Source: Cytophagales bacterium
GTDB taxonomy: Bacteria > Bacteroidota > Bacteroidia > Cytophagales > Cyclobacteriaceae
Direction: 5' to 3'
Assembly (NCBI GenBank): GCA_022360015.1
Contig: JAKSDQ010000060.1
Location: 13,922 to 77,921, forward strand
Length of the DNA stretch: 64,000 bases
The notes under the pieces were generated by a model that was given only the letters and a program-made list of their open reading frames with translations, did not search any database and had not been told where the DNA came from. The stretch's first letter is position 1, and each line of letters starts with the position of its first letter. Position numbers and translations under genes: made by a program. Positions 4,570 to 63,098 of this stretch are shown here, in pieces.

Positions 4570-4692
4570 ATTAGTTTCAGTGCTAAATGGGTTTTTTGCC
4601 CGTATATAAAAAAAACAAAAATGTTAAATTGAATCAATCTGATGACAAAGTAAACAGCAAAATTATAAATTTACCTGAATTATCACCAGACA

Positions 4693-5310: not shown

Positions 5311-5379
5311 GATCGTTATCTTTATCCTCCTGGCAAAAATAACGGAAATTACGGGCAAAATGCATCTTTGGATATAGTT

Positions 5380-6090
5380 TTATAATATGCCCTCATCGCT
5401 AAAGCTAAAGTAACTTTCATCTGTAAAAATCAAATGATCGAGTACCGGTATATCAAGCATTTTACCGGATGATTTTAACTGGCTGGTTAATCGGATGTCA
5501 GCCTCACTGGGTTTGAGGGTACCTGAGGGATGATTATGTACAAGGATGATAGAACTGGCCAGGTGGTTGAGGGCATGTTTGAATATAACCTTGGGATCTG
5601 CCAGGGTACCCGACACCCCTCCCATGCTCACGGCAAGTTTTTTCAGAACCTGATTGGCACGGTTTAAAAGTATGATCCAAAAATGCTCTGTTGGCTGATC
5701 CAGCAGGACTGGCCTCATTAATTTGTAGACATCTGATGATGAGGTTATTTTAAATTTACGGTTGGGAGCGATTTCATTTCTCCTTCGCCCCAGTTCAAAG
5801 GCACTGATAATGGCTATGGCCTTTGCCTCGCCTATGCCTTTGATCCTTTGTAATTCTTTGGCATCGAGCCTGGCGATTGTGTTGAGATCGTGATTAAACT
5901 CGTTTAACACACTTCTGGCTAAATCAATTGCACTCAATGACTTCGTGCCGGTAGCAATCAGAATTCCTAAAAGCTCTGCATCCGTAAGAAAAGATTTACC
6001 TTTATTTAAAAGCTTTTCCCGTGGTCTGTCTTGTTCAGCCCAATGGCGAATATGGAAGCCGTCGCCGACTCTGTAGGTGGTGTTTTTCAT
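5380..6090 (-). CDS. radC: RadC/JAB-domain protein
   Basis: DRPREKL, HhH (GIGEAKA) and JAB motif HNHPSG...PSEAD...LDH. Confidence 0.95.
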   Translation of the reverse strand: MKNTTYRVGDGFHIRHWAEQDRPREKLLNKGKSFLTDAELLGILIATGTKSLSAIDLARSVLNEFNHDLNTIARLDAKELQRIKGIGEAKAIAIISAFELGRRRNEIAPNRKFKITSSSDVYKLMRPVLLDQPTEHFWIILLNRANQVLKKLAVSMGGVSGTLADPKVIFKHALNHLASSIILVHNHPSGTLKPSEADIRLTSQLKSSGKMLDIPVLDHLIFTDESYFSFSDEGIL

Positions 6091-6147
6091 AATAAGTCTA
6101 AAAAATGTATTGCCCCTCCGGAGCCCCTAAAAAAAGTCTTCTAATAT

Positions 6148-6179
6148 AAAAAAAGCCTCATGTTTTTTCAACACAAGGC
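6148..6179 (-). terminator. Intrinsic terminator after rpsT
   Basis: Minus strand GCCTTGTGTT-GAAAA-AACATGAGGC (10 bp including two G-U pairs) followed by a U-tract. Confidence 0.75.
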
Positions 6180-6203
6180 CAAATTTTTTCTTCTGTATTT
6201 TTC

Positions 6204-6455
6204 TTACAAACTGTTTACGTAGCTTGTTAGTTTTGATTTATTATTGGCTGCTTTGTTTTTATGAATGATATTTCTCTTGGCCAACTTATCCAGCATACTG
6301 GAAACTTTTTTCAATAGTTCTACTGCCTCTGCTTTATCGGTAGTTTCCCTCAATTTTTTGATATAGGTTCTGGTTGTTTTATGTTGATATCTGTTCCTTA
6401 GCCTTTTGGCATTGTTAGACCGTATCCTTTTTAACGCAGATTTATGATTCGCCAT
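6204..6455 (-). CDS. rpsT: 30S ribosomal protein S20
   Basis: [13 protein letters not shown]...[14 protein letters not shown]. Confidence 0.98.
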
Positions 6456-6483
6456 TTTATACCCTTCATTTTTTTTAAGAATG

Positions 6484-6514
6484 CAAATTTAATACTAATT
6501 CTATAAATTACAAA
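6484..6514 (-). promoter_or_regulatory. Bacteroidota sigma-ABfr promoter for rpsT
   Basis: Minus strand TTTG (6514-6511), 19-bp spacer, TAAATTTG (6491-6484). Confidence 0.8.
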
Positions 6515-6609
6515 AACGCAAGATAATTTTTAAGTTTTGTTTTCTCCTGCAATAATTCCTGTTTATATTACTACAGAATTCCCCCCTTTTTTTAAAATGC
6601 CACCAGACC

Positions 6610-7617
6610 ATGAACAGATCATGTATTTTTTTATTATCGTTGCTGCTATGCCATTTTAATGGTAACAATCCTGAATATTCAAACCGTATTGCGGCAGAAA
6701 AACCTTTGTGGGGCTTTTATGCCCATAAGCTGATTAACCGTCTGGCGGTATTTTGTTTACCCCCAGAAATGATAGTTTTCTATAAACCTAACATCCGCTT
6801 TTTGGAAGATCACGCCGTAGATCCTGATAAAAGAAGATATGCCATAAAGGGAGAAGCGCCAAAACATTATATTGATCTGGACCATTTTCCGGCAGAAAGT
6901 TTGGATCAATCAGCTTTTTACTGGAAGGATGCGGTTGAAAAATTTTCAATCGATACCCTGATGAGCCGTGGAGTCGTGCCATGGCATATAGTGAAGGTAA
7001 AGTATCAGCTTACCAAGGCCTTTGAGAAAAAAGATTTCCATAAGATTTTAAAACTTTCAGCCGATCTTGGACATTATATAGGAGATGCCAACGTTCCACT
7101 ACATACTACGAGCAATTATAACGGACAATTAACCGGTCAATATGGCATTCACGGTTTCTGGGAATCCAGAATTCCTGAACTCTCCGCCGATAGTTACGAT
7201 TTGTTTGTAGGCAAGGCTTCTTATTTATCAAATCCTCAAAGAACTGCCTGGCAGGCCATAAAAAATGCGCACAAAGCCGTTGACTCGGTTTTGTTGTTTG
7301 AAAAATTATTGAGCGAATCCTTTGCTGAAGACAAAAAATACAGCTTTGAAGAACGGAACGGACAAACTGTCAAGGTATATTCCAAACCTTTTAGTAAAGC
7401 TTACGAAAAAAAGCTTAATGGACAGGTTGAACGCCAGTTGAAGGCTTCAATCAAGATGGTGGCGGACTTTTGGTATACTGCCTGGGTTGACGCAGGCCAA
7501 CCGGTGCTGGTGGGCTTGAACAGTGAGAATAATATGAGTTTACTGGAAAAACTACTAGAGGAAGAGAGTCGTTTATGGCAACAGAAAAAATTTCCTGCAA
7601 GACCTCACAAGAATTGA
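6610..7617 (+). CDS. Zinc-dependent phospholipase C / S1-P1 nuclease family secreted protein
   Basis: Signal peptide, WGFYAH, HYIDLD, LGHYIGDANVPLH and HGFWES zinc-ligand motifs. Confidence 0.85.
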   Translation: MNRSCIFLLSLLLCHFNGNNPEYSNRIAAEKPLWGFYAHKLINRLAVFCLPPEMIVFYKPNIRFLEDHAVDPDKRRYAIKGEAPKHYIDLDHFPAESLDQSAFYWKDAVEKFSIDTLMSRGVVPWHIVKVKYQLTKAFEKKDFHKILKLSADLGHYIGDANVPLHTTSNYNGQLTGQYGIHGFWESRIPELSADSYDLFVGKASYLSNPQRTAWQAIKNAHKAVDSVLLFEKLLSESFAEDKKYSFEERNGQTVKVYSKPFSKAYEKKLNGQVERQLKASIKMVADFWYTAWVDAGQPVLVGLNSENNMSLLEKLLEEESRLWQQKKFPARPHKN

Positions 7618-7697
7618 AGATGGAGGTAAGTGTAGCCTTCCCACCCAGACTTACCCTGGTGTTGGCTAAAAGCTTAAATTACATGTTGTAACATTTA

Positions 7698-8486
7698 ATG
7701 GGCACCTCCGTTAATTCAATCATGGCAATAACTATCTATCCAAAAAAAGAACAGGCCAGCGGCCAGTTTGCAGCAGGAGCCATCAAAGAAAACAAGCCAA
7801 TCGGTTTTCCGCACGAGGGAGGCGAGTTAAAGCCCTTTTCTTCCTTGTTTTACTGGGCCCATGCCTGGTCCGATCAAGGTGGGTTAATCGGGGAACATCC
7901 ACATCAGGGTTTTGAAATCATGTCTTTTGTATTAAAAGGTGAAATTGAACACTATGACTCGCAGTTACAAAGTTGGAAAAGGCTCCGGGCTGGTGACATG
8001 CAGATTATCAGGTCAGGAAAGGGCATATCCCATGCCGAGAGATTTTTGCCTGGTGCGCACATCTTCCAGATTTGGGTTGACCCGGACTTGAGAAAAACCC
8101 TGAACAATCCCGCTACCTACAGCGATTACAGGGCAGACAGCTTTCCGGAGTCAAAGGAATCCGGTTGTGTAGTCAGAACTTTAAAAGGGCCTGGTTCACC
8201 TTTAACGATGAATGCCAATATTGAAAGTATCAGAGAGCTCCGGTTTTCCGAGGGACACCACAGAATAGAAATAAACAACAAAAACATGCTGGGAATATAT
8301 GTGACCGAAGGATTCCTCTCGTTGAATGAAGAGGCCGTGGGGCAGGATGATTTTGTATTGATCAAGGAAGAAAAAGAGATTTCTGTAAGCAATGAATCGG
8401 TTGCCGGACTGTTTATTATAGAAGTTCCTGATAATCCGGGGTATGAAACCTATGCCAATATGCAGGGTATTTCAGCTAAAATCTGA
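7698..8486 (+). CDS. Pirin-family cupin
   Basis: HPHQGFE...HYDS and GKGISHAE...QIWV pirin motifs; the true start may be the downstream Met (MAITIYP). Confidence 0.85.
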   Translation: MGTSVNSIMAITIYPKKEQASGQFAAGAIKENKPIGFPHEGGELKPFSSLFYWAHAWSDQGGLIGEHPHQGFEIMSFVLKGEIEHYDSQLQSWKRLRAGDMQIIRSGKGISHAERFLPGAHIFQIWVDPDLRKTLNNPATYSDYRADSFPESKESGCVVRTLKGPGSPLTMNANIESIRELRFSEGHHRIEINNKNMLGIYVTEGFLSLNEEAVGQDDFVLIKEEKEISVSNESVAGLFIIEVPDNPGYETYANMQGISAKI

Positions 8487-8526
8487 TTTTTTTTAAATAA
8501 ACTGAACTTAAGTAATTTGAATTCCG

Positions 8527-8558
8527 TTTGGAAACATAACAATTACCTTTTATATTTG
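8527..8558 (+). promoter_or_regulatory. sigma-ABfr promoter of the sulfur-assimilation operon
   Basis: TTTG (8527-8530), 20-bp spacer, TATATTTG (8551-8558); 30 bp upstream of the riboswitch. Confidence 0.85.
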
Positions 8559-8587
8559 GAACTTCAAGTCAATTATAAGGTAATTGA

Positions 8588-8700
8588 TTTATAAAGAAGC
8601 GCGGAGAGACAGGCTCTGTGAAGCGCTAGCAACCATATCAAAAAGATACACATTGATAGAAGGTGCTAATTCCTGATCCCGAAAGAAGGGAGAATATAAA
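8588..8700 (+). ncRNA. SAM-I (S-box) riboswitch aptamer
   Basis: P1 TTTATA/TATAAA; conserved AAGA-GCGCGGAGAGACAGGCTCTGTGAAGCGC P2, AGCAACC...AAGGTGCTAATTCC P3/J3-4, and P4 TCCC/GGGA. It lies upstream of Met/sulfur genes. Confidence 0.92.
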
Positions 8701-8711
8701 TTAATGAAACA

Positions 8712-8825
8712 ATGAAAAATAACACAAATCTTTTAACAGCCAAAAAAGCCTCACTTTTGAGCCCCTCCATTATTCATAATGAGAATGATACTTTAATGTT
8801 TGGGTGTTGTTGCTGTTGTTGCTAA
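8712..8825 (+). CDS. Putative hexa-cysteine leader peptide (37 aa, MKNNTNLLTAKKASLLSPSIIHNENDTLMFGCCCCCC)
   Basis: Manual translation: ATG 8712, TGT TGT TGC TGT TGT TGC at 8805-8822, TAA 8823-8825. Too short for the ORF track. Confidence 0.75.
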   Translation: MKNNTNLLTAKKASLLSPSIIHNENDTLMFGCCCCCC

Positions 8826-8965
8826 TCAATACATTTTATCTTTCATGAAGGATAATCTGGCCTGAGACAAACTTGTCTCAGCGCAATCAAATTACATCAA
8901 ATCAATAATTTTCAGAAGAAACAGGCGAAGGAGTTAAATCCTGAACCGCTAAAACAAAGAGAAAA

Positions 8966-9313
8966 ATGGCATTAATGATTACTGACGAATGTATCAACTG
9001 TGGAGCTTGTGAGCCGGAATGCCCAAATACGGCCATTTACGAAGGAGGAATAAATTGGAAATGGGGGGAAGGCAATGGATTGACAGAAGTTACCGATGCC
9101 CATGGAAATGTAATTGATGCACAAGAAGATCAGGAACCAATTTCGGAAGACTTTTATTTTATTGTCAGCGGCAAATGCACCGAGTGTGTGGGGTTTCATG
9201 AGGAACCACAATGTGCCGCGGTATGTCCGGTTGATTGCTGTGTTGAAGATCCGGAACATGTAGAAAGTGAAGAAATGCTATTGACTAAAAAAGAAGGTTT
9301 ACATTTAGTTTAA
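8966..9313 (+). CDS. 2[4Fe-4S] ferredoxin (YfhL/Alvin-like, with insertion)
   Basis: [12 protein letters not shown] and [18 protein letters not shown] cluster motifs. Confidence 0.93.
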
Positions 9314-9341
9314 AAGGATAGATTGCGACAGCGCACTAAAT

Positions 9342-10520
9342 ATGAGTGAATTTAAACACATAGAAACGAAGGCCATCAGGACACAAAATGGCAAGGCATC
9401 ATACAGGGAGCATTGTGCGCCGATTTACATGACTTCAAGCTTTACTTTCGAAGATGCTGAGCAGGCCAGAGCACTGTTTGCAGACGAAATCGAAGGTAAC
9501 ATTTATACAAGGTTTTCAAACCCCAATAATTCAGAATTTGTAGAAAAGCTTTGCTTGTTGGAGGAAACCGAAGATGGTATCGCGACTGCCTCAGGCATGG
9601 CAGCTATGTTTTCCAGTATGGCTGCGCTGCTTAATTCCGGAGATCATGTGCTGGCTTCCCGTTCGGTGTTTGGATCCACACATCAGATCTTTACCCAAAT
9701 TTTTCCGAAGTGGGGCATTGAACACACCTACGCAAATATCAACGACCCGTCAGATTGGGAGGGAAAGATCAGAAAAAATACAAAAATGATTTTCGCTGAA
9801 ACACCTTCCAACCCGGGTTTGGATCTGATAGATATGGAATGGCTGGGAGGACTTGCGGAAAAGCATGGACTTGTCTTGAACATTGACAATTGTTTCGCCA
9901 CGCCCATACTGCAACAACCGTCAAAATATGGCGCGCAAATTGTGACTCACTCTGCCACCAAGTTTATGGATGGTCAAGGCAGAACCATTGGCGGGGCAAT
10001 TCTTGGAAAACGTGATTTGATTGACAAAATAAGGTTTTTTACAAGGCATACCGGACCTGCCCTGTCACCTTTTAATGGTTGGATACTTTCGAAAAGCCTG
10101 GAAACCCTGCCCTTGCGCATGGAAAGACACTGTGAAAATGCCATGAAAATTGCTGAATACCTTGAAGGACACGAGGAACTTGAGTCAGTTAAGTATCCAT
10201 TCCTAAAGTCACACCCGCAGTACGATTTAGCCAAAAAACAGATGAGATATGGCGGGGGGCTAATCACATTTGTGGTTAATGGTGGTTTGGAAAGGGGCCA
10301 AAGGTTCTTGAATAGTCTGGAAATGTTGTCGTTTACAGCCAATCTCGGCGACGCCAGAACCATCGCCACACATCCGGCCTCAACGACACATTCAAAACTT
10401 TCGGAAGAAGACCGGAAAGTTGTGGGTATATCTCCGGGCTTGATCCGTATTTCTGTGGGTTTGGAAAATGTCAATGATATATTGGAAGACATCGTAAACG
10501 CATTAAATGCCTCTAAATAG
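9342..10520 (+). CDS. metZ: O-succinylhomoserine sulfhydrylase (Cys/Met PLP enzyme)
   Basis: YTRFSNP, ASGMAA, HSATKFMDGQGR (PLP lysine), HPASTTH. MetZ-like within the trans-sulfuration family; substrate is inferred. Confidence 0.8.
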   Translation: MSEFKHIETKAIRTQNGKASYREHCAPIYMTSSFTFEDAEQARALFADEIEGNIYTRFSNPNNSEFVEKLCLLEETEDGIATASGMAAMFSSMAALLNSGDHVLASRSVFGSTHQIFTQIFPKWGIEHTYANINDPSDWEGKIRKNTKMIFAETPSNPGLDLIDMEWLGGLAEKHGLVLNIDNCFATPILQQPSKYGAQIVTHSATKFMDGQGRTIGGAILGKRDLIDKIRFFTRHTGPALSPFNGWILSKSLETLPLRMERHCENAMKIAEYLEGHEELESVKYPFLKSHPQYDLAKKQMRYGGGLITFVVNGGLERGQRFLNSLEMLSFTANLGDARTIATHPASTTHSKLSEEDRKVVGISPGLIRISVGLENVNDILEDIVNALNASK

Positions 10521-10524
10521 AACT

Positions 10525-10629
10525 ATGAGAATAAAAATATACTATATCGCTCCCCTTTGCTTGATTAACCTGTGTATGATGGCTTGTTTTTGTTGTTGTC
10601 GAAACTGTATCAGCAGGGAGCATCTGTAA
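10525..10629 (+). CDS. Putative Cys-rich attenuator leader peptide (34 aa, MRIKIYYIAPLCLINLCMMACFCCCRNCISREHL)
   Basis: ATG 4 nt after the metZ stop; 7 Cys codons including TGT TTT TGT TGT TGT; TAA 10627-10629, upstream of a terminator. Confidence 0.8.
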   Translation: MRIKIYYIAPLCLINLCMMACFCCCRNCISREHL

Positions 10630-10657
10630 TTTTATGCAAGTTTAGTATAAGTTTTAG

Positions 10658-10689
10658 AGCCTTCCTGCTGACACGGGAAGGCTTTTTTT
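10658..10689 (+). terminator. Attenuator terminator before the sulfite reductase
   Basis: AGCCTTCCTG / CGGGAAGGCT 10-bp stem, 6-nt loop, T7 tract (10683-10689). Its 5' arm can alternatively pair with 10611-10620. Confidence 0.9.
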
Positions 10690-10725
10690 GTGAGTTGTAA
10701 TCAAAGTATTAAACAATCTATAAAA

Positions 10726-12885
10726 ATGACACCAGAATTAAATAACAAAATTTCAACCGAAGCGAAAGAAGATATTCGCGAGTTGGCAGAGAAAATCAGT
10801 CGTTTTCGTGATGGCAAGATAGACGAAGAGAAGTTTAAAGCGTACCGGCTTACAAGGGGCGTGTATGGACAAAGACAATTAGGTGTGCAGATGTTTCGCA
10901 CCAAAATACCTTACGGCCGGCTTACTGCCGATCAATTGACACGGATAGCCGATATCTCGGAGAAATATACGAATGGTAACCTCCATACTACCACCAGGCA
11001 AAATATTCAATTGCATTATGTAAAGTTGGACGACAGTCCTGCCATTTGGACAGAATTAGAAGAGGTAGGGGTAACAGCCCGTGAAGCATGTGGTAATACT
11101 GTACGTAATGTAACCGGTTCTGCGCTGGCAGGAATCGATCCCAATGAACCTTTTGATATAACCCCCTATGCTGAATCCGTTTTCAGATATTTTCTTAGAA
11201 ATCCAATATGCCAGGATATGGGAAGAAAGGTAAAGATTGCTTTCTCTTCCAGTGACAAAGACTCGGCGTTCACTTATTTTCATGATTTTGGATTTATTCC
11301 GGTTGTGAAAATTGAGGATGGTAAGGAAATCAGAGGCTTTAAAACTGTGGTAGGTGGCGGCCTGGGTGCACAGTCTTTTGTGGCCAGGACTGCCCACGAG
11401 TTTTTACCTGAAAACCAGATTATCCCTTTCACCGAGGCAGCGCTCAGGGTTTTTGACCGTTATGGGGAACGTGAAAAAAGGTTCAAAGCAAGACTGAAAT
11501 TCTTAATAGATGAAAAAAGAGGATTGGGATTGGAAAAATTCCTTGAATTAGTGGAAAAAGAACGTAAGGCCATCCCCCACCAATCAATTGAAATTGACAG
11601 GACGCTGGTACCTGAGTTGGTGCTACCGGAAAAACAGGATTATTCTGATGTGACTATTGAGGAGGAAGAAAAATATCGGGATTGGCTAAAATCAAATGTA
11701 TTTGAGCAAAAACACAAAGGCTTTCATGGTATCCGGATCAAGTTAACAAACGGCAACATCGATGCGGAAAGAGCCAGAAAATTATCAGGTATCGTCAGAA
11801 AACATGCCGCCGATGACCTGAGGATCACAGTTAATCAGGGCCTGTTATTGAAATATATACCAACCAGCGCATTACCTCAGGTATTTAATGAATTAAACGC
11901 CCTGGGCCTGGCGGAATTTGGTTTTGGCACCATTGCTGACATCACAGCCTGCCCCGGAACAGATACCTGTAACCTTGGTGTAAGTAACAGCACCGGCGTT
12001 GCAGAAGCCCTGGAAAAAATCATCAGGGAAGAATACAAGGATTTAATCTTTGATGCAGACATTCATATTAAAATCAGCGGATGCATGAATTCATGCGGAC
12101 AACACATGGCAGCCAACATTGGTTTTCATGGAAGTTCAATTAAAAACGGACAACTGGTTGTACCGGCTTTGGTGGTATTACTTGGGGGTGGGGTCGACCC
12201 TGAAGGAAATGGGTTTGTCGCCGACAAAGTGGCCAAGCTACCATCAAAAAAGGCACCACAGGCGTTGAGAATTATTCTGGATGATTATAAGGAAAATGCG
12301 CTTCCGGGAGAGTACTTCAACAGTTACTATAAAAGATATGGTAAAATATATTTTTATGATCTGATAAAACACCTCATTGATCCGACTCAGCTAACGGAAT
12401 CGGATTATATCGACTGGGGGGGAACTGATAATTTTGTGCCAGCAGTTGGTGTGGGTGAATGTGCCGGTGTCAGCTATGACGTTGTCGGAACGATCATCGA
12501 GGATGCCACTGAAAAACTGGCGAATGGTGAAAAAGATCTGGCTGCCGATGAGTATGACAGGACGATTTATAATGCTTACAATACGTTTGTAATCGGTGCA
12601 AAAGCATTACTGTTAAGTGAAGATATCAGATGTAATACACATATTGGTATTATCAGGGATTTTGACAAACATTTTGTTGAAGCCGGCAAATTAACGCTTA
12701 ACGAAAACTTCGAAACCCTGGTCTTGCAAATCAATCAAAATACACCAAATGCAGATTTTGCAAAGCGATATCTGAAGCTGGCCCATGAATTTTTGCAGCA
12801 GGTTAAAACATACCGTGCCAATCAAATTGCCGGTGATGTCACACAGAAAGAAAAGCTGGTGGTAGATAATTTTTATAAAGCATAA
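10726..12885 (+). CDS. Ferredoxin-dependent sulfite (nitrite/sulfite) reductase with C-terminal HEPN-like extension
   Basis: RLTRGVYGQRQ, TTRQNIQLH, CPGTDTCNLG and KISGCMNSCGQH siroheme/4Fe-4S motifs. Start moved from GTG 10690 (on the terminator U-tract) to ATG 10726. Confidence 0.9.
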   Translation: MTPELNNKISTEAKEDIRELAEKISRFRDGKIDEEKFKAYRLTRGVYGQRQLGVQMFRTKIPYGRLTADQLTRIADISEKYTNGNLHTTTRQNIQLHYVKLDDSPAIWTELEEVGVTAREACGNTVRNVTGSALAGIDPNEPFDITPYAESVFRYFLRNPICQDMGRKVKIAFSSSDKDSAFTYFHDFGFIPVVKIEDGKEIRGFKTVVGGGLGAQSFVARTAHEFLPENQIIPFTEAALRVFDRYGEREKRFKARLKFLIDEKRGLGLEKFLELVEKERKAIPHQSIEIDRTLVPELVLPEKQDYSDVTIEEEEKYRDWLKSNVFEQKHKGFHGIRIKLTNGNIDAERARKLSGIVRKHAADDLRITVNQGLLLKYIPTSALPQVFNELNALGLAEFGFGTIADITACPGTDTCNLGVSNSTGVAEALEKIIREEYKDLIFDADIHIKISGCMNSCGQHMAANIGFHGSSIKNGQLVVPALVVLLGGGVDPEGNGFVADKVAKLPSKKAPQALRIILDDYKENALPGEYFNSYYKRYGKIYFYDLIKHLIDPTQLTESDYIDWGGTDNFVPAVGVGECAGVSYDVVGTIIEDATEKLANGEKDLAADEYDRTIYNAYNTFVIGAKALLLSEDIRCNTHIGIIRDFDKHFVEAGKLTLNENFETLVLQINQNTPNADFAKRYLKLAHEFLQQVKTYRANQIAGDVTQKEKLVVDNFYKA

Positions 12886-49625: not shown

Positions 49626-50205
49626 GATATTTTACAGCCCTACTTGATAATGGCTCCCGGCATAGGACTACTTATATGCGGGTAATCCTCAAAAAGCCTG
49701 CAAAGTAGCCTTCAGAACCTGCAAAGAAGCCCTTCACATAACCGGGGAAGCCGGAAGTATCGACACCTATGATCCAAAAGAACGGATTCTTCCGGTACCA
49801 AACGGTGATACCCTGCAGGTTATCAGGACACAAAAGGTCTATACATTTTCAGGCGAAAGAAATCAGGATGCACCCCCTCATGCACAGGAAATACTGCCGG
49901 TCACCCTGACCGGTATGCTATTTTTAGACTTGGACTTCACTCAATCCATCGGGTTTATTGCAAACTACGGCAGGTACAACGATACCTCCGGTGCGGTAGC
50001 CGGGGCGATCCTGGGGGCCTATCACGGTTTTGGCAAATTACCGGATAAACTCAAAAATCAGGTGATTGAAACTAACAAAAAACATCCGGGCATTGACCCG
50101 GAAGCACTCGCTGTCCGCATGCATTTGCGTGGACCAATGGGGCCATCTGACAGAAGGCGTCCCGGAGGAGCTTGCGTGATTAACCATCATAAAAAGTTTT
50201 GCTGA
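49622..50205 (+). pseudogene. Eroded ADP-ribosylglycohydrolase-family gene
   Basis: Only the C-terminal NYGR.NDTSGAVAGAILGAYHG..KLP is recognisable (49915-50205). An ATG overlaps the kinase stop (ATGA) but its frame closes early. Confidence 0.65.
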
Positions 50206-53690: not shown

Positions 53691-53964
53691 TGTGGGCCAC
53701 TCCGGATTATATTCGGCTATTTCTATTTTCACTTGCTCAAAATTGCAGATAACCGATACGCAAATGAATGCTTATGGTAAAACTAGTCGATATTCCCATA
53801 AAAACCAGCCTAAGCTGGTCTGGGGACAGAATAGAAAGGCTTTTTCTTTGAAATATGCCGGTTTTTCGTTGTAAATAGCTGAATACGGTGAACAAAAAAT
53901 CTCATGATTAATAAATCATGAGATTTTTTGTTTTTCAAACATTAAGTATTGTCTTTAGCCGTAT

Positions 53965-56900
53965 TTATTGTTCCGGGATGATGTTTTCTTCATTTTCGAT
54001 CAAAGTACCCTCAAGGGTTCCGGTCAGTGCGATAAACTCAACTCTTCTGTTCAACGCTTTTCCCTCTTTAGTAACATTGCTGGCTATGGGCTTGGATTCA
54101 CCCCATCCTTTGGATTCAAGCCTGGATTCACGGATACCAAATTTGATCAACGCGCGTTTAATAGCTTCTGACCTGTCCTCTGATAGTTTCTGATTAAAAG
54201 CATCTGAACCGTCTGAGTCCGTATGACCATCGATACGGAATGAAATGCCCGGATGTTCTTTCATGAAGGTAGCAATCCTGTTGATAGTGGTAAAGGATTC
54301 AGGCTTAATGGTGGATTTTGAGACGTCAAAGTTGATATCCCTAGTGGTAAATTTACCTTTGGATACCACTTGCTCATACAAGGTCATATTATCAGGGGTA
54401 GATACTATACAACCATTGGCATCGGTCACATTTACCGTATACACCCCTAAAACAAGGTTCTCAATATCCTGCGTTTTGGCACCATTGCTCCACTGGTAGT
54501 CATAAGGCGCTACACCACCATGCACGCTGATATAAATGGCACCACTGTTGTCGCCACAGCACTTTACATTTTTCACGGAGTCGATTCTAAGCTCCAATAA
54601 AGGTGGTTCGGAAACTTCAGCGTTGACCGTTTTAATACAACCATTGGCATCGGTAATCATGGCGGCATAACTGTCTGCACCAATATTACGCAGGTTTTGG
54701 GTCTCAGCGCCGTTACTCCAGGTAAATTGGTATGGCTCTATACCGCCTTTCACATCAATATCAATGGCACCTCTTTCATAGCCAAAACACGCTACATCTG
54801 TGACTTTGCCGACGGAGGCCAGGAATGGCGGAGGCTCTTCTATCACTGCTGAAAGGGTGCTTTCACAACCATTGCCTTCCTTAATTTTTAATGAATAAGC
54901 ACCTGCAGCCACCTGGTGAATATCCCTGCTGGTGGCCCCATTGTTCCACTCAAATGAATAAGGCTGAACACCACCCATCACAGTAACATTGATCGAACCG
55001 GTCTCCTCACCATGGCAACGGACGTCGGTGATCGCATCGATCGACTTCACCAACTCATAAGGTTGTGTAATCTCTGCACTATAGTTCGTGATACATCCAT
55101 TGGCATCCGTAAGGGTGGCCACATACCTGCCCGCTGCCAGGTTCTTGATGCCAGGTGTTTTTTGACCGTCATTCCAATAGTATTCATAAGGGGCAACACC
55201 ACCTTTTGCGGATATGCTAATCGAACCATTTTGTTTCCCCGAACATTCATTGTTCACAAGAGAATCCAATTCAATAATCAGTCTTTCAGGTTGTTTAATG
55301 GCTGTCGTAAATGTCTGTTCACATCCATTGGCGTCGTTTACCCTTACCTGATAACTGCCAGCCATCACGTTCACAATATCTTCACTAACAGCACCATTGC
55401 TCCATTTATATTCATAAGGATAAACACCCCCTTTGACATTAATATCGACAAACCCTTTGCTGTCTCCGTAACAAATGATATTATGAACGGTGTCTTTAGA
55501 TATCATCAAGGGACCGGGTTGTTCTATTACCGTATCCAGTGTAGTCTTACAATCATTTTTATCTGTTACGGCTAACTGATATTTCCCGGCAGGCACTTCG
55601 CTGATATCCTTGGTGGTTTGTCCTGAATTCCATATATACGAATAGGGTTTGATACCACCTTCAATACCTACTAACAATTTACCGGTCTTGTCGCCTGCAC
55701 ACTTAACATCATCTTTGTCCAACAAAGTCGCGATAAGTCCATTAGGTTCTGAAATATTTGCCGTGAGTATCTTTGAACATCCATTGGCATCTTTCACGTT
55801 TACCTCGTAATCTCCTTTGGGAAGGTTTGTGAGGTTTTGTGAGGTGCTGCCATTATTCCATTCGAATGAGTACGGTGAAGTGCCGCCTTCAACCCCCAGG
55901 GATATAGCCCCTTTTTGTTCGCCAAAGCAGCGGTTATTTGTTACATTTTCCACAGATGCCAGTAACTCGGAAGGTTCTGTAATATTCACATGAAGTTCAT
56001 TGGTACAACCGTTGGCATCCGTTATCGTGACCTCGTATTCACCGGCATGGACACCTGTAATATCTTTTGTTTTTTCTCCATTGCTCCAGTAATAACTGTA
56101 TGGTGTAACCCCGCCATTTACATGTAGTTTTACCGCACCTTCATCAATACCCTTGCATTTCACATGGCTTGTTTCCGAAATTTCGGCTGTAAATAACGCC
56201 GGTTCCGTGATGATCTGATTGAATGTTTTCTGACACTGGTTGCCATCTGTGACAGTTAATGTATATTCTCCTGCTTTCAACCCGGAGATATCCTGTGTTT
56301 TAGCGCCAGTATTCCATTCATATTGATAAGGTTCGATACCACCGGTCACGGTTACATTTATGGAGCCCGTGTTATCCTGAAAACAATTGATGTTTTCGAT
56401 GAAGTCTTTAGATACTATGAGTGGTGTCGGTTCTGCCACAGTAGTACTCAGACGCTTTTCATTCCCATTTTGATCTTTTACCGTTACAGTATATTCACCG
56501 GCTTCGATACTGGAGATATTTTGTGTAGAAGCGCCATTGCTCCAACTGAACGCATAAGGAGGCGCACCGCCGGTCACAGAGATGTCTATGGCTCCCAGGG
56601 CATCGCCGTGACAAAGAATATCTTTCACATGATCCAATGAAATTACCAATGGTGGTGGTTGGTTGATAGTGGCAATTACTTTTTTCTCACAACCGTTGGC
56701 ATCCATCACATTCGCGGAGTAATCCCCACCGGGTACTTTGCCGATATCTTCCGTGGTGGCTCCGTTACTCCAGCTATATTGGTAGGGAGTAACACCACCT
56801 TTAACGGAAATGTCGATCGCACCCGCTTTATCACCATTTATCAGTACGTGTTTTACATCAACTACTTCTACTTCCAATAAGGGTGGATGAGATATTTGCA

Positions 56901-59900
56901 CAGCGGGTACCGAATCCCTACACCCATTGGCGTCGCTGATCCCAACGGCATAATTACCGTGTGGAATATCTGTCAAATCCTGCGTTGTCGCACCATTACT
57001 CCACTTGTATTGATAAGGCGCCACACCACCCTTCACAGCTATATTGACATAACCATCGGTGCCGTTAAAGCAAGATACATTTTTTGTATTAACCAATGAA
57101 CTGATTAATTTCGATGGTTCATTGATAACGGCCTTCAAAGTTTGCGTACATCCATTGGCGTCTTCAATGTTGAGCGTATAGGTTCCGGCACCAACATCGA
57201 GCAGGTTTTGACTTGTATTTCCATTACTCCAGTTAAACTTGTATGGTTTCGAACCACCGGCCACTTCAACGCTAACGGCCCCATTTGTAGCCCCATTACA
57301 CAAAATTTGTTTTGTTTTGGCTATGCGGGCCCGAAGCAATGGTGGTTGTTTTACTGCCGCCGTCAATGTTTGCGCACAACCATTGGCATCCGTCACGGTA
57401 AGGGTATAGCTACCAGCCGGCAATTCCCCGATATCTTCCGTGGTCGAGCCATTGCTCCAGCTATACGCATAAGGTTTTACACCTCCTGCAACTGTGACAT
57501 CTATTTTGCCTTTTAAATCACCATGGCAAAGGATATGCTCTATGTTATCCAGCGTTAAGTTTAACAAATCCGGTTGAGTAATCTCAGCATCCAGTGTTTT
57601 GACACATCCATGGGCATCGCGTAGTTTTAATGAATACTTACCGGCAGGCACGGCTTCAAGGTCTTGTGTGGCTGCGCCATTATTCCATTTGTACTGGTAA
57701 GGACCAACACCACCAATCACAGAAACATCAATGGCACCTTCTTCATTACCGTGACAAAGTACATTTGTCACCGACTTTACCGACTGTACAATGGCTGACG
57801 GTTCGGTGATAGTGGTTGTCACAGTCTGTAAACAACCCTTCGCATCGGTTGCCTTTAGTTCATAGAAACCTGCTTTAACATTACTCAGGTTCTGGGTAGA
57901 TGCTCCGTTATTCCAAACAAACTTGTATGGTTTTGTTCCCCCGGAAACCCTGATATTCACATTTCCGGTGTTTTCGCTATTACACAATATATCATTATCG
58001 GACTCAAGGCTTGCTACAAATAAGGGGGGTTCCATGATCTGAGCATCTATTGTCTTGGAACAACCCTTGGCATCGGTTACCATAACTGAATAATTACCGG
58101 CAGGAAGTTTGGTGATGTCTTCGGTTTCCGCACCATTACTCCATGCGTACTTGTATGGCTTAACACCACCCTGAACCGTTAAATTCACAGCCCCCTGAAG
58201 AAGGCCATTGCAATTAATACTTGTAACATCTACTTTTGGTACCAACAATTCATTTTGTGCCACAACGGCCGATAATGTATCCCTGCATCCGTTGGCATCA
58301 AAAATTTCAACGTTGTATTCTCCGGCTTTTACACCGACAATATCCTGCGAAATGGCACCGTTGCTCCATTTGTACTGATAAGGCGTAACACCTCCATTTA
58401 CATCAATGTTTATGGCACCCTTTGCATCTCCATAGCAAAGAATATTGGTTACTTCATGCAACGCTCGAACAAGCTTATCGGGCTGGGTAATCTTTTTTGA
58501 CAGGCTTTTAGTACAACCATTCGCATCTGTCACAACAACATTGTATTCTCCGGCAACAAGATCTTCAATATCCTTGGTTGTCTGTCCGGAATTCCATTTA
58601 TAGGCGTAAGGAGTAACTCCTCCGGATACATTCAAAGAAATAGCCCCTGTAGAATTACCAAAACAGTCGACATTATTGGATTTGTCTTCTTCCACCACAA
58701 GCAATTGGGGTTCCGTCACCTCTGCATTCGCCTGGCGGCGGCATCCGTTGGCATCTGTTACTGTCACCATATAATTACCTGCCTTAACTCCTGCCAGGTC
58801 CTCTGTAGTGGCTTCGTTGCTCCAGTTAAAAATATAAGGCTCCTTGCCTCCGGTAACCGCAATATCCACTGAGCCCGAATTCTCCCCGAAACAATTGATA
58901 TTTTCGATTTTCAAGATATTTATTTGCAAGGGCTCCGGCTCGGTCACTGTAGCCTCAAGTATCTGTTCACACAAATTGGCATCTGTTATTTTTACCGAGT
59001 ACTTACCTGCAGGCACATTTTTAAGATCCTGGTTATTATCACCATTACTCCAACGGTATTTGTAGGGAGGAACACCTCCTGCTACATCTATATCCACACC
59101 TCCCGAATACTCGCCGTGACAGTCAATATTTTTAGCGCTAATCAAAGATGCCTGAAATGCAGGAGGTTCCGTAAGAACGGTATCCGCTTGCTTTTTATGA
59201 CCATTTGCATCAGTCACAACAACGGAGTAGTTGCCGGCTTTTACTTGGGTCAAATCCTGAACCGTTTGTCCGCTGCTCCACTGATAAGAATAAGGTGACA
59301 CACCCCCAATAACCGAGACACTTATCTCACCGGTATTGTCGCCATGGCAAGCAATATTTTGGGTTTTATATATTCTGACCACCATTGGTTCGGGTTGGGT
59401 AAGGGTGACGTTCAGGATCTTCGCACAGCCAATTGCGTCTGTAATCCGGACTGAATATGAACCGGCTTTGAGGCCTCTTAAATTCTGTGTTTCTTTATCG
59501 TTGCTCCACTTGAATTTATACGGGGCTACACCCCCTGAAACTTCAATATCGATGCTACCGTCTTCACCTTGATAATGACGCACGTTTTGTGCCTTGATAA
59601 GCTTCGCCGTAAGTGGAAGAGGTTGGGTAAGGGTTGTTTCTATTGAATTCTCACACCCATTTTTATCTGTGACCTGTACTGAATAACTGCCTGCTGGTAT
59701 CCCTGCAATATCTTGCATCGTTTTCCCGTTGCTCCACTGGTACTGGTAAGGTTGGGTACCTCCTGTTACATTGATATTGATGGCCCCTCCAAAGTCACCA
59801 TTACACCTCAGGTTTCTTATTTCATCAAAGCCAATCTCCAGGGGTTTGGGCTCTGCTACGGTGGTTAAAGAAACTTCGGTACAGCCCACAGCATCTTTTA

Positions 59901-60666
59901 CAGTCACCTGGTATTCACCCGCAGTCAATCCACTTAAATCTTTTTCGGTCGCTCCATGATCCCATTGGTAAGTGTATGGAGCTACCCCACCACTTACCGA
60001 TAGGGTAATCTGACCGGTGCTGTCCCCCTGACAAAGAATATTGCTTTCGTCATCAAGTGTTCTTACAATGAGCGGTTTTTCCTGGACATCGGCTGTCAGA
60101 ATTTCCTGGCATTGGTTAGCGTCGGTAATTAATACGGAGTACCGTCCTGAATTCACTCCGGTGAGATCTTCGGTGGTAGCTCCTGTATTCCAACTGTATT
60201 TGTAAGGTTCGACGCCTCCCTGAACTGAAATTTCCACGGCACCATTATCATAACCATAACAAAGGATGTCTTTGATATTGTCAATGTCGGCTAATAAGGG
60301 CTTTGGCTCTTCGACCACCACCTCAAGTGTATCGCTACAACTGAAGTTGTCATATACCGCCACCTTGTAAACCCCTGCTTTTATTGCGGCAATGTCTTGC
60401 GTTTTTTCCCCATTGGACCAATAATACTTATAGGGAGGATATCCCCCGCTGGCAGATATATTGATGGCACCTTTGCTCTCTCCATTACATACGTTGTGGG
60501 TGACAGCTTCCAGCTTCACAATGATCTTCGGGGATTGTGTGACTATAATGTTAACTCCTGTTTGTTTTTGAGAAGTTGAGTCCTGCTGTGCAATACTTTC
60601 AAAAGACAGAAAGAAAATACAAAATAGTAAAAAATAAAGTGGTTTGATTCTTGTTAAAATCATCAT
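53965..60666 (-). CDS. Giant secreted protein: 27 SprB-type Ig-like repeats plus a C-terminal OmpA-like peptidoglycan-binding domain
   Basis: Signal peptide; 27 counted ~76-aa repeats (C.G...G.I.V.GG..PY...W..G...D...AG.Y.V.V.DANGC); GHTDSDG...LSEDR and NRRVEF OmpA motifs; no T9SS CTD. Confidence 0.93.
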   Translation of the reverse strand: MMILTRIKPLYFLLFCIFFLSFESIAQQDSTSQKQTGVNIIVTQSPKIIVKLEAVTHNVCNGESKGAINISASGGYPPYKYYWSNGEKTQDIAAIKAGVYKVAVYDNFSCSDTLEVVVEEPKPLLADIDNIKDILCYGYDNGAVEISVQGGVEPYKYSWNTGATTEDLTGVNSGRYSVLITDANQCQEILTADVQEKPLIVRTLDDESNILCQGDSTGQITLSVSGGVAPYTYQWDHGATEKDLSGLTAGEYQVTVKDAVGCTEVSLTTVAEPKPLEIGFDEIRNLRCNGDFGGAININVTGGTQPYQYQWSNGKTMQDIAGIPAGSYSVQVTDKNGCENSIETTLTQPLPLTAKLIKAQNVRHYQGEDGSIDIEVSGGVAPYKFKWSNDKETQNLRGLKAGSYSVRITDAIGCAKILNVTLTQPEPMVVRIYKTQNIACHGDNTGEISVSVIGGVSPYSYQWSSGQTVQDLTQVKAGNYSVVVTDANGHKKQADTVLTEPPAFQASLISAKNIDCHGEYSGGVDIDVAGGVPPYKYRWSNGDNNQDLKNVPAGKYSVKITDANLCEQILEATVTEPEPLQINILKIENINCFGENSGSVDIAVTGGKEPYIFNWSNEATTEDLAGVKAGNYMVTVTDANGCRRQANAEVTEPQLLVVEEDKSNNVDCFGNSTGAISLNVSGGVTPYAYKWNSGQTTKDIEDLVAGEYNVVVTDANGCTKSLSKKITQPDKLVRALHEVTNILCYGDAKGAINIDVNGGVTPYQYKWSNGAISQDIVGVKAGEYNVEIFDANGCRDTLSAVVAQNELLVPKVDVTSINCNGLLQGAVNLTVQGGVKPYKYAWSNGAETEDITKLPAGNYSVMVTDAKGCSKTIDAQIMEPPLFVASLESDNDILCNSENTGNVNIRVSGGTKPYKFVWNNGASTQNLSNVKAGFYELKATDAKGCLQTVTTTITEPSAIVQSVKSVTNVLCHGNEEGAIDVSVIGGVGPYQYKWNNGAATQDLEAVPAGKYSLKLRDAHGCVKTLDAEITQPDLLNLTLDNIEHILCHGDLKGKIDVTVAGGVKPYAYSWSNGSTTEDIGELPAGSYTLTVTDANGCAQTLTAAVKQPPLLRARIAKTKQILCNGATNGAVSVEVAGGSKPYKFNWSNGNTSQNLLDVGAGTYTLNIEDANGCTQTLKAVINEPSKLISSLVNTKNVSCFNGTDGYVNIAVKGGVAPYQYKWSNGATTQDLTDIPHGNYAVGISDANGCRDSVPAVQISHPPLLEVEVVDVKHVLINGDKAGAIDISVKGGVTPYQYSWSNGATTEDIGKVPGGDYSANVMDANGCEKKVIATINQPPPLVISLDHVKDILCHGDALGAIDISVTGGAPPYAFSWSNGASTQNISSIEAGEYTVTVKDQNGNEKRLSTTVAEPTPLIVSKDFIENINCFQDNTGSINVTVTGGIEPYQYEWNTGAKTQDISGLKAGEYTLTVTDGNQCQKTFNQIITEPALFTAEISETSHVKCKGIDEGAVKLHVNGGVTPYSYYWSNGEKTKDITGVHAGEYEVTITDANGCTNELHVNITEPSELLASVENVTNNRCFGEQKGAISLGVEGGTSPYSFEWNNGSTSQNLTNLPKGDYEVNVKDANGCSKILTANISEPNGLIATLLDKDDVKCAGDKTGKLLVGIEGGIKPYSYIWNSGQTTKDISEVPAGKYQLAVTDKNDCKTTLDTVIEQPGPLMISKDTVHNIICYGDSKGFVDINVKGGVYPYEYKWSNGAVSEDIVNVMAGSYQVRVNDANGCEQTFTTAIKQPERLIIELDSLVNNECSGKQNGSISISAKGGVAPYEYYWNDGQKTPGIKNLAAGRYVATLTDANGCITNYSAEITQPYELVKSIDAITDVRCHGEETGSINVTVMGGVQPYSFEWNNGATSRDIHQVAAGAYSLKIKEGNGCESTLSAVIEEPPPFLASVGKVTDVACFGYERGAIDIDVKGGIEPYQFTWSNGAETQNLRNIGADSYAAMITDANGCIKTVNAEVSEPPLLELRIDSVKNVKCCGDNSGAIYISVHGGVAPYDYQWSNGAKTQDIENLVLGVYTVNVTDANGCIVSTPDNMTLYEQVVSKGKFTTRDINFDVSKSTIKPESFTTINRIATFMKEHPGISFRIDGHTDSDGSDAFNQKLSEDRSEAIKRALIKFGIRESRLESKGWGESKPIASNVTKEGKALNRRVEFIALTGTLEGTLIENEENIIPEQ

Positions 60667-60690
60667 TAGTAAAAACGGTTGAATACGTCA

Positions 60691-60698
60691 CAAAAGTA
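60691..60698 (-). promoter_or_regulatory. -7 promoter element for the SprB-OmpA gene
   Basis: TACTTTTG, 24 bp upstream of ATG 60666; no clear -33 box. Confidence 0.5.
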
Positions 60699-61173
60699 GC
60701 ACTGAACATCAGCTTAACTTGTTGGATATCGTCTGAAAATATACGTACGTAAGTTTTAGTCTATCAAACTTGTCTCGAATCTGAATAGTTTAGGCCGGAT
60801 AGGATACCTGTTTCACCTGGCATGGAAATGAAAACGATGATTACAATTGAACCCAAAATCCTCAAAAAAGGCCCAATCCATAAAGAATTTTAGAAAATGT
60901 TAAAAGAAAGGGTTTTTAATATGGTACTGATTAATGAAAAATCAGGGATGGGTGTTGGTAAAGATGTCAAACCGGCAACCTCACTGACTTACAAGGGTGA
61001 AGGGATCGGTTTGAAAATCGAATGAAAGTTTTTCTACATGATTTATGCTGATTGGCTGAATTCGAGCCTTCTTTTCAGTTAATGCTGAAGACATCATCGA
61101 TGCCCATACAAGTATTTCAATTCACGCATACTTTAATCTCTGACGTTTTGTATTCTTGCTTTAGCTGGTTATA

Positions 61174-61670
61174 TTGGAAGCTATGAAATCCATGTGGGCA
61201 CGAGTATCAGACCTCAATGCTTTACTTATTGCCTTGAAAAAAGGTGATGAAAACGCACTGGCATCGATATTTGATCTGTACAGCAGCAAGGTTTATGCTT
61301 TTTGTTATAAAAGGTTGAAGTCAAAAGATCTTTCTGACGATGTTGTTATGGAGGTTTTCACAAAATTATGGGATAAACGAAACCCCCTCAAGCTAGACAC
61401 CTCTTTTGAAGCTTATCTTTTTACGATAGCCAAAAACCACCTTGCAAACGTACTCAAAAAGATTGCCAGGGATGAGCACCTGCAAAAGCAGTTAATTCAT
61501 TCTTCCCAGTATTATCATCACCTTGAAGATGAAAATCCTTACGAGGAGTACCTGACGCTGGCAGAGCAGTTTGTGAATAAAATGCCTCCCCAGCAACAAA
61601 AGGTTTTTCGACTTCGCCTGGAAGAAGGGCCCAGTTACAAAGAAATTGGCCATAAATTAGGCCTTTCAAA
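61174..61670 (+). pseudogene. ECF sigma-70 factor truncated within region 4
   Basis: FDLYSSKVYAF...DVVMEVFTKLW...AYLFTIAKN region 2; MPPQQQKVFRL...SYKEIGHKLGLSK, then loss of similarity. Confidence 0.8.
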
Positions 61671-62270
61671 ATGCCCATCTCGCTGGAAGTGCATGACCAA
61701 AACCCGGAGGAATTCCTGCACCGGATCGAGCAGCAAACCGGTTTGAATTTCGTTTATCAAAAATCCCTTGTCGCCAGTGAAAGGAGCCACTCGGGATCAT
61801 ACAGCGAAGTGCCCTTGTATGATGTGCTGCTTGAATTGTCTACCATTTACAATTTAGCATTCAGAAGGGTAGACGACGTGGTAAACATAAAAAAACGTGC
61901 GTCATCGAAAATACCTGTCGAAGAAATCATCTCGGACAGGATGATTACTGGCAAAGTTACCGACGAAACCGCCACCCCCCTGACCGGTGCCACAGTCCAG
62001 GTAAAAGGGAACCTCCGCATAGGGACCGTCACTGATATTAATGGCCGTTACGCATTAAGCATCCCCGACGATGCCACCACCCTTGTCTTTTCTTATATCG
62101 GTTTTTTGCCACAGGAAATTGACGTTAGCAGCCTATCGGTTGTTGATGTGGTATTGCAGCCGGATTTAAGAGAGTTGAGTGAGATAACTGTTGTTTCTAC
62201 GGGGTACTATGAGGTGGAGCAGCGGCTTAACCCAGGTAACATCGTCAAACTAGACGCAGAAACTATTGAT
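61671..62270 (+). pseudogene. SusC/RagA N-terminal fragment (STN + CarboxypepD-like + start of plug)
   Basis: ISLEV...IEQQTGLNFVY (STN), ITGKVTDE...PLTGATVQVKG...GTVTDINGRY...LVFSYIG, EITVVSTGY; no signal peptide and no barrel. Confidence 0.85.
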
Positions 62271-62598
62271 TCACCTCATACGCGCTGAAGCCAGAGCACA
62301 GCAAGGCAATATTTCCGGAGCGCAGGAAGATTTGAACGTCATTAGGACAAGAGCTGGCCTGCCAAATACATCTGCCAGCGATCAAACAAGCCTATTGCTG
62401 ACTGTGGAACAGGAAAGACGCTTTGAGCTATTCAGCGAGTATGGTCAGCGCTGGCTTGATTTGGTGCGAACCAATAGAGCAACAGCCGTGCTAGGCCCAA
62501 TAAAGGAAAGATGGGATGAAACCGATCGCCTATGGCCAGTCCCACAGCGGGAATTCCTGATTAATCCGAATTTGGGTAATCAGAATCCCGGCTATTGA
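62271..62598 (+). pseudogene. SusD/RagB C-terminal fragment
   Basis: LIRAEA...DLNVIRTRAGL...ERRFELFSE.G.RWLDLVR...WPVPQ.E...NPNL.QNPGY. Confidence 0.88.
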
Positions 62599-62675
62599 TC
62601 AATGTAATAATCCCGGATTTCATTGCGGGATCACATAAGCAAAAGAAATTTTTTAAACAATAATACCAGATTTAT

Positions 62676-63098
62676 ATGTTAGACAATAAAGCTGTTGTCT
62701 TACTCGCTGTAGCAGTTGGAGGAGTTAGTTCTATGCCTTCCCTAAGATGGTACCGGGATATGACAAGGACGCAAGAGAATACTATCCACAAATCAAGTCA
62801 AAGACTATTAAGTTCCATGACTGAGGGCCCCTTGGTTATGAACATTTATGCAAATATTCTTAACGCAAATTTTGGATCTGCTACATCATTCTCCACGTTT
62901 TTGGCAGATGGTGCTGTTGTAGAGCACATTTTTCAGTTTTTAGACACAGATGGAAATGTGTTAGCATCTACAACGTTACCAGAGGCCTTTTTTCTGTCAT
63001 TACCACGCTTTAACAACTTTACTTTTGGGCTGGTAGGTCGTACGGATGATGGTTCCGGAGGAAGCGACCTTTCAGTACTGGATATAGAGCATTTTTAG
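62676..63098 (+). pseudogene. Fragment of an unrecognised gene
   Basis: Contains FQFLDTDGNVLASTTL...LVGRTDDG..G..LS, a motif shared with 63442-63780; in an eroded region. Confidence 0.4.

Follow-up and report, generated by a model that had tools for sequence, protein, structure and literature searches.

A stretch of 64,000 nucleotides from a metagenome-assembled Cytophagales genome (assembly GCA_022360015.1, contig JAKSDQ010000060.1, positions 13,922 to 77,921; referred to at its full length as the window) carries on its reverse strand a gene of 2233 codons, whose product joins an N-terminal signal peptide, 27 tandem SprB-type repeats and a C-terminal OmpA-like domain (Table 1). The genome comprises 7.3 Mb in 340 contigs, is 99.9% complete and shares its Genome Taxonomy Database (GTDB) genus with Agaribacillus aureus BMA12. 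DNA of this genome turns up again in coral and marine metagenomes from at least five studies. The gene appears to stand alone, since a hairpin followed by a T-run lies 3' of the stop codon and the neighboring genes are convergent or divergent.

Domain architecture of the 27-repeat protein

A preliminary description of the locus, made from the sequence alone, had proposed a 2233-residue protein with a signal peptide, 27 SprB-type repeats and an OmpA-like domain with intact peptidoglycan-binding residues, lacking both a beta-barrel and the C-terminal domain (CTD) that marks type IX secretion system (T9SS) cargo. Each of these elements is borne out by the present analysis. A Pfam scan of the protein recognized SprB (PF13573) in 27 stretches (E = 1.6e-279; 901.6 bits against a cut-off of 28) and one OmpA domain (PF00691) at residues 2113-2207 (E = 8.5e-21; 74.6 bits against a cut-off of 27.2). 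The motif G-x-x-x-P-Y-x-Y-x-W was found in 27 copies, which are spaced by 76 residues, once by 75 and once by 77. At the C-terminus, NCBIfam models matched only anchors of the OmpA_C type (YiaD, PA1041, YfiB, Pal, PorE, and MotB). The signal peptide, supported by the sequence and by the orthologue alignment, consists of a basic n-region, a hydrophobic core and the cleavage site SIA↓QQ, and nearly all orthologues carry Gln at position +1. No lipobox was identified, the cleavage being A↓Q, and none of the orthologues has a Cys following its signal peptide; the absence of Cys at +1 classifies the signal peptide as type I and not as that of a lipoprotein. The mature N-terminal cap begins with a short, variable polar stretch and continues with a conserved strand, G-V-x-I-I-I-T-Q-S-P, resembling the final strand of a "repeat 0."

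Structural modeling of the C-terminal 278 residues with AlphaFold2 (AF2) from the single sequence yielded a predicted local distance difference test (pLDDT) score of 32, and modeling of residues 1866-2233 with an alignment of 36 sequences yielded a mean pLDDT of 85. The latter model comprises three six-stranded beta domains (pLDDT ~95), a short linker helix, an alpha/beta OmpA fold (~80) and a disordered tail. In Foldseek searches, the OmpA part matched the peptidoglycan-binding domain of OprF, the OmpA protein of C. gingivalis and the OmpA-PD domain of A. baumannii with a bound peptidoglycan peptide (targets 5u1h, 5wtp, and 3td5; template modeling scores, TM(target), of 0.78-0.81). It is 44-50% identical to the C-terminal domains of OprF and C. 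gingivalis OmpA. The Asp of the GHTD motif and the Arg of the LSxxR motif are invariant in alignments of 36 and of 10 sequences and align to their counterparts in OprF and YiaD; in A. baumannii OmpA-PD, the conserved Asp and Arg reportedly hold meso-diaminopimelic acid (meso-DAP). The C-terminal domain is thus predicted to adopt a canonical OmpA_C fold and to bind peptidoglycan. For the repeats, the best structural match was the GhpA stem (9flw_A, a 508-residue fragment), aligned over 264 columns.

When the last 150 residues were scanned alone at E <= 1, OmpA was the sole match and neither a Por_Secre_tail (PF18962/TIGR04183) nor a CHU_C (PF13585/TIGR04131) CTD was detected. Lines for Por_Secre_tail, PEGA and Big_7 in the Pfam scan of the whole protein contained zero significant stretches and were positioned within the repeats. 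Three other SprB-repeat open reading frames (ORFs) of the same genome do carry C-terminal T9SS tags, two of them, which served as positive controls, CHU_C (1.5e-20 and 1.2e-25) and the third a weak Por_Secre_tail (2.3e-4) below Pfam's cut-off. No barrel family was matched by Pfam or NCBIfam, and no beta-barrel fits into the protein, because residues 47-2091 are wholly tiled by 76-residue repeats. Pfam, NCBIfam and the sequence itself likewise revealed no two-partner secretion (TPS) domain and no lipid anchor. At the level of sequence assignment, no stretch is left in which a CTD, a barrel or a lipobox could hide.

Table 1. Features of the gene for the 27-repeat protein and of a recurrent neighbor. 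Positions refer to the window unless a locus is named.
Feature	Position	Strand	Basis and remarks
Whole gene, 2233 codons plus stop	53965..60666	-	ORF scan; monocistronic in appearance, neighbors convergent/divergent
Type-I signal peptide, residues 1-26, cut SIA↓QQ (A26↓Q27)	60589..60666	-	Sequence and family N-terminal alignment
Mature N-terminal cap, residues 27-46 (20 aa)	60529..60588	-	Family N-terminal alignment
27 tandem SprB-type repeats, residues 47-2091, period 76 aa	54394..60528	-	Pfam, motif scan, alignment, AF2, Foldseek
Repeat 5/6 junction, candidate staple-free hinge	59197..59577	-	Cys1 of repeat 5 (364) and Cys2 of repeat 6 (490) missing from all 90 orthologues
Repeat 17/18 junction, second candidate hinge	56461..56841	-	Cys1 of repeat 17 (1276) and Cys2 of repeat 18 (1402) missing family-wide
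Vicinal Cys-Cys in repeat 27, residues 2036-2037, invariant	54556..54561	-	Motif scan and alignment
12-residue linker DNMTLYEQVVSK, residues 2092-2103, conserved	54358..54393	-	Alignments; short helix in AF2 model
OmpA_C-like peptidoglycan-binding domain, residues 2104-2212	54031..54357	-	Pfam, NCBIfam, Foldseek; invariant motif GHTD...N..LS..R...NRRVE
Acidic tail, residues 2213-2233 (21 aa), variable, disordered	53968..54030	-	Alignments and AF2; in part missing from orthologues; too short for a CTD
Hairpin and T-run, likely intrinsic terminator	53891..53930	-	Sequence; strain-variable spot
CarboxypepD_reg-like + OmpA neighbor	L001 13535-14284; L002 6050-6745; L003 13762-14472; L004 5594-6304		

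Family, length and cysteine pattern

A homologue search identified about 90 orthologue clusters that combine PF00691 with PF13573, measure 2203-2245 residues and are annotated merely as "OmpA family protein." Their hosts are Sporocytophaga, Reichenbachiella, Marinoscillum, Ekhidna, Agaribacillus, Splendidivirga, Chryseosolibacter and uncultured Cytophagales, and isolates with an orthologue include S. myxococcoides (WP_156026811.1), R. agariperforans (WP_216010412.1), M. pacificum (WP_258099171.1) and A. aureus BMA12 (WP_346759412.1). A MAFFT alignment of 90 members, which are 44-84% identical over the whole protein, is nearly gap-free between residues 35 and 2221, and length varies only in the signal peptide, the cap and the tail. 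Two shorter entries from the first search represent truncated ORFs, colinear and gapless in alignment; the shorter SprB and OmpA entries of a second search lie mostly on short contigs, and both of the entries that were read begin in the middle of a repeat. In one Sporocytophaga metagenome-assembled genome (MAG; L017, positions 4149-10807), two ORFs of 998 and 1144 residues take the place of the orthologue, owing to either a frameshift or a misassembly inside the repeat array. In the hit list of the homologue search, relatives with a CTD are 2373-3868 residues long, and SprB-repeat proteins as a whole range from 1357 to 7382 residues in a library of 1.84 billion representatives, the profile search of which was dominated by multi-repeat proteins and yields the length contrast only.

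The individual repeats can be told apart across the family. In the alignment of 90 sequences, a given repeat of the window protein shows a mean identity of 0.54 to the repeat of the same index in orthologues and of 0.41 to repeats of other indices, the best-conserved being repeats 1 (0.65), 2 (0.64) and 27 (0.75). Conservation among orthologues also exceeds conservation among paralogues at most non-core repeat positions. As judged from this alignment, the repeat number is fixed at 27 family-wide and each repeat retains an identity of its own by position. By sequence, the repeats are most closely related to those of T9SS type-B cargo of 2,400-3,900 residues, at 38-46% identity.

All 51 Cys residues of the mature protein are conserved, each of them in 98-100% of the 90 sequences. 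Two Cys are present in every repeat except repeats 5, 6, 17, and 18, and the resulting four "holes" are equally conserved: Cys1 is missing from repeats 5 and 17 (positions 364 and 1276) and Cys2 from repeats 6 and 18 (490 and 1402). An extra, invariant Cys at position 2037 forms a vicinal pair with Cys 2036. Since the number of mature Cys is odd, one invariant Cys would be free or engaged in an intermolecular bond. Two disulfide schemes would fit this pattern. In the first, Cys1 of one repeat pairs with Cys2 of the next, and the holes would then remove exactly two staples; in the second, pairs form within repeats, and the two leftover Cys would cross-link neighboring repeats. The stem of GhpA is rigid and contains disulfides between adjacent immunoglobulin-like (Ig-like) domains (bioRxiv 10.1101/2024.01.29.577165), and by this analogy inter-domain stapling of the SprB-type repeats is favored, with the 5/6 and 17/18 junctions as candidate hinges. 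A search of the PDB sequences with three repeats did not reach GhpA. Block duplication was considered as the origin of the two sites, which lie 12 repeats apart, and was rejected, as profile similarity between repeats shows no preferred offset.

Sequence data from other samples support an intact gene. In run X4, a coral metagenome from a different study, a single 28-kb contig spans positions 53922-60900 with 73 substitutions and no gaps, and runs X1 and X3 likewise tile the gene. Among the 39 strain differences listed, 32 are synonymous and seven non-synonymous; this preponderance of synonymous changes indicates that the gene is under strong purifying selection. Two short contigs of a coral metatranscriptome fall within the gene at 99-100% identity, which suggests that it is transcribed, or they may represent carried-over DNA. 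The terminator region (53859-53922) differs among strains, with a 62-bp indel in X4 and another hairpin sequence in loose ends of X3. That the gene is an assembly chimera or in decay, a concern raised by tandem repeats that misassemble easily and by a metagenome-assembled genome of 340 contigs, can be dismissed in view of the gapless X4 contig, the 90 colinear full-length orthologues with isolates among them, and the strong skew toward synonymous differences.

Distribution and gene neighborhood

The distribution of the family was assessed with a query that spans the junction (repeats 26 and 27, linker, and OmpA), and full-length matches were counted. Carriers were found in eight of 301 sampled Cytophagales genomes, belonging to three GTDB families, and in 10 of 301 genomes (6 of 132 genera) within the GTDB family of the organism itself. 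In the same class, 387 genomes sampled from orders other than Cytophagales, Flavobacteriales among them, gave no full-length match. In all of these searches only six to eight candidates per genome were scored, so that a few carriers may have been missed.

In the window, the gene is flanked by convergent genes for a TonB-dependent receptor and a thioredoxin and by a divergent gene for an extracytoplasmic function (ECF) sigma factor. A comparison of 15 loci revealed no conserved neighbor. PorP/SprF was absent from the neighbors within ~5-10 kb in the window and is not shared across the 15 loci, and neither a secretin nor another pore gene is conserved beside the gene across these loci. The divergent ECF sigma factor was rejected as a conserved partner, as it recurs only in Agaribacillus, at 25% identity. 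In Cytophagaceae, an exported protein of 231-249 residues with CarboxypepD_reg-like and OmpA domains is encoded on the same strand, always adjoining the giant gene, upstream of it in Sporocytophaga and downstream in two MAGs. This gene, too, was rejected as a partner; it adjoins only in Cytophagaceae, and its best match in the genome studied here lies on another contig. At a further locus (L005), the neighbor is a 792-residue protein with two OmpA domains and a C-terminus that is seemingly of SPOR type. Two other observations concern the window itself. The ECF sigma factor gene is followed (within 61174-63098) by overlapping short ORFs of 205, 110, and 140 residues, the first with CarboxypepD_reg, which may represent a fragmented anti-sigma or SusC-like gene. 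A 96-residue ORF at 49915-50205, which aligns with no more than the final 38 positions of the ADP-ribosylglycohydrolase family, is probably a gene remnant.

Related systems, predicted location and role

Several known systems share one half of this architecture. SprB of Flavobacterium johnsoniae and other SprB-repeat type-B cargo, including the T9SS-secreted grappling-hook protein GhpA of Aureispira (PDB 9flw), resemble the 27-repeat protein in their PF13573 repeats, Sec signal, Cys-rich repeats and rod-like build, and its domains, as modeled, can be superposed on successive Ig-like domains in the stem of GhpA. In contrast to such cargo, the protein has neither a type-A nor a CHU_C/type-B CTD, is not encoded beside PorP/SprF, ends in OmpA_C and has a fixed repeat number, whereas cargo of the SprB type varies widely in length. 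With Pal, YiaD, YfiB, the C-terminal domain of MotB, the C-terminal domains of OmpA and OprF, and PorE, it shares the canonical OmpA_C with the DAP-binding Asp and Arg. These anchors, however, are held by a lipid, a barrel or a transmembrane helix and carry small extra domains, while the present protein lacks a membrane anchor and carries a rod of 2,045 residues. The inverse autotransporters intimin and invasin also combine a periplasmic peptidoglycan-binding module with a tandem Ig-like rod, but their order is reversed: a LysM module and a 12-stranded barrel precede a C-terminal rod, and no barrel is present here.

Furthermore, a separate family of about 590 residues (P0375 and relatives) comprises a signal peptide, a propeller of the Reg_prop type, two SprB repeats and a C-terminal OmpA domain, a layout similar to that of PorE except that SprB repeats serve as the spacer. 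On sequence grounds, this family demonstrates the presence of SprB repeats in other proteins anchored by OmpA. The preliminary description had taken SprB repeats to be typical of T9SS cargo, which holds for this genome but is not absolute in view of the ~590-residue family. The repeat type is also present in a solved phage protein, as the "neck whiskers protein gp24" (PDB 9occ_A) carries the motif GGVAPYTYVW...GVYTVTVTD.

The reading that we favor, with about even confidence, is that the protein is exported by the Sec pathway, tethered to peptidoglycan and kept in the periplasm as a structural rod of fixed length. After removal of the signal peptide, the 27 SprB-type beta-sandwich domains would fold and become oxidized in the periplasm, giving a stiff, disulfide-stapled rod in which two conserved junctions, one after repeat 5 and one after repeat 17, lack a staple. 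At the C-terminus, OmpA_C would attach non-covalently to the meso-DAP peptide stem of the wall. If each 76-residue domain, whose longest strands in the model have nine residues, contributes about 3 nm, the rod would measure some 70-100 nm. The preliminary description had assumed 3.5-4 nm per domain and a rod of about 100 nm, longer than the periplasm is wide; this excess over the periplasm stands. The periplasm spans ~20 nm, as derived from PorM/GldM structures. Being several times longer than this width, the rod would have to run more or less along the wall, in the space that separates peptidoglycan from outer membrane, where it might serve as a strut, spacer, scaffold or ruler, and its N-terminal tip (repeats 1-2) would probably contact a partner or the next molecule.

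A periplasmic rod is the most economical interpretation of a Sec signal, a rod array and a wall anchor of the periplasmic type in a protein with no known device for passage across the outer membrane. The strictly conserved length, the position-specific repeats and the invariant staples point to a mechanical or geometric role, and the conservation of the rod tips suggests defined contacts. Of the two placements proposed previously, lateral in the periplasm or threaded through the outer membrane, the former is favored because the 12-residue linker leaves little space for a membrane-spanning segment and because the fixed length of the family is unlike that of surface adhesins; it requires no additional assumption. 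Threading found no support, no pore or PorP/SprF gene being conserved nearby.

Several points weigh against this interpretation. The supplements of the S. myxococcoides proteome paper contain no entry for the protein. Its nearest repeat relatives are T9SS type-B cargo, so that the protein probably derives from a surface adhesin, and the rod may have some role at the surface. The proposed length and stiffness are drawn from a three-repeat AF2 model and from the analogy with GhpA. In addition, the patchy distribution, with about 3% of the genomes of its own GTDB family, argues against a core envelope role and also against a core part of the gliding machinery. As no partner gene is conserved nearby, the role assigned to the tip is guesswork.

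Among the alternatives, the strongest, though still unlikely, is a multivalent binding platform in the periplasm, kept at the wall by its OmpA domain, whose ligands might be, for instance, glycan chains, proteins of the envelope or T9SS cargo on its way out, and for which the number of sites would matter more than length or rigidity. It shares the arguments for location with the periplasmic rod, and the conservation of repeat-specific surface positions across orthologues would suit it. However, the Pfam and NCBIfam scans detected no ligand-binding motif or enzymatic domain, valency alone would tolerate the gain or loss of repeats, of which there is none in 90 orthologues, and the invariant disulfide pattern points to mechanical stiffness.

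Somewhat less probable is a wall-anchored surface filament, in which the OmpA domain stays in the periplasm and the rod passes outward, N-terminus first, through a pore encoded elsewhere to act as an immobile adhesin. The kinship of the repeats with T9SS type-B surface adhesins and the extracellular GhpA stem, a rod that far exceeds the width of the periplasm, and a higher conservation of the N-terminal repeats than of those in the middle, which a functional tip would lead one to expect, are all consistent with this proposal. It is disfavored by the lack of a CTD, TPS domain, barrel or lipid anchor, by a linker to OmpA of just 12 conserved residues modeled as a short helix, and by the missing PorP/SprF, secretin or other pore gene across the 15 loci. 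Moreover, exposed adhesins vary widely in repeat number, whereas the length of this family is fixed with zero indels.

A more speculative extension, to which we give slightly less weight again, regards the protein as the building block of a peptidoglycan-anchored filament. Rods joined end-to-end or bundled via their tips (repeats 1-2, and repeat 27 with its odd Cys) could form rails or a periskeleton that flexes at the hinges and guides surface adhesins or braces the envelope in certain gliding Cytophagales, or they could reach the surface by a route that is independent of T9SS tags. Periskeletal polymers are exemplified by CrvA of Vibrio. In gliding Bacteroidota, both unidentified filaments and a "multirail" structure, which contains GldJ, are present beneath the outer membrane (PMC9870892). 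The 27-repeat protein resembles these in being an elongated protein structure predicted to lie under the outer membrane, and the composition of such structures is only partly known. Nevertheless, no evidence links it to any of them: it was not found in the sampled Flavobacteriales, is patchy in Cytophagales and is unrelated in sequence to GldJ, a lipoprotein.

Finally, it is improbable that the protein is an unrecognized T9SS cargo, exported as a whole with the OmpA-like domain or a cryptic internal signal in place of the CTD. The organism evidently has cargo of both CTD types, and SprB repeats elsewhere reside mostly in such cargo. Yet the C-terminal domain is modeled as an alpha/beta OmpA_C and not as the beta-sandwich of a CTD, no CTD signal emerges even at E <= 1, and the conserved peptidoglycan-binding residues would have no substrate outside the cell.

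In the literature searched, no paper joins "SprB repeat" with OmpA. The general design is not new, since the ~590-residue propeller family also exists; the fixed-length rod of 27 SprB domains is an undescribed variant of it. The family presents a SprB module fused to a cell-wall anchor without an export tag, with exactly 27 domains and an invariant disulfide pattern in at least three GTDB families. The gene occurs in culturable species, which makes localization and knockout tests straightforward. A periplasmic rod would give the envelope of Bacteroidota a large, rigid component whose length is defined, and would be a candidate for the unidentified filaments beneath the outer membrane of gliding cells; a rod that reaches the surface would do so by a route of export or anchoring that is not yet described.

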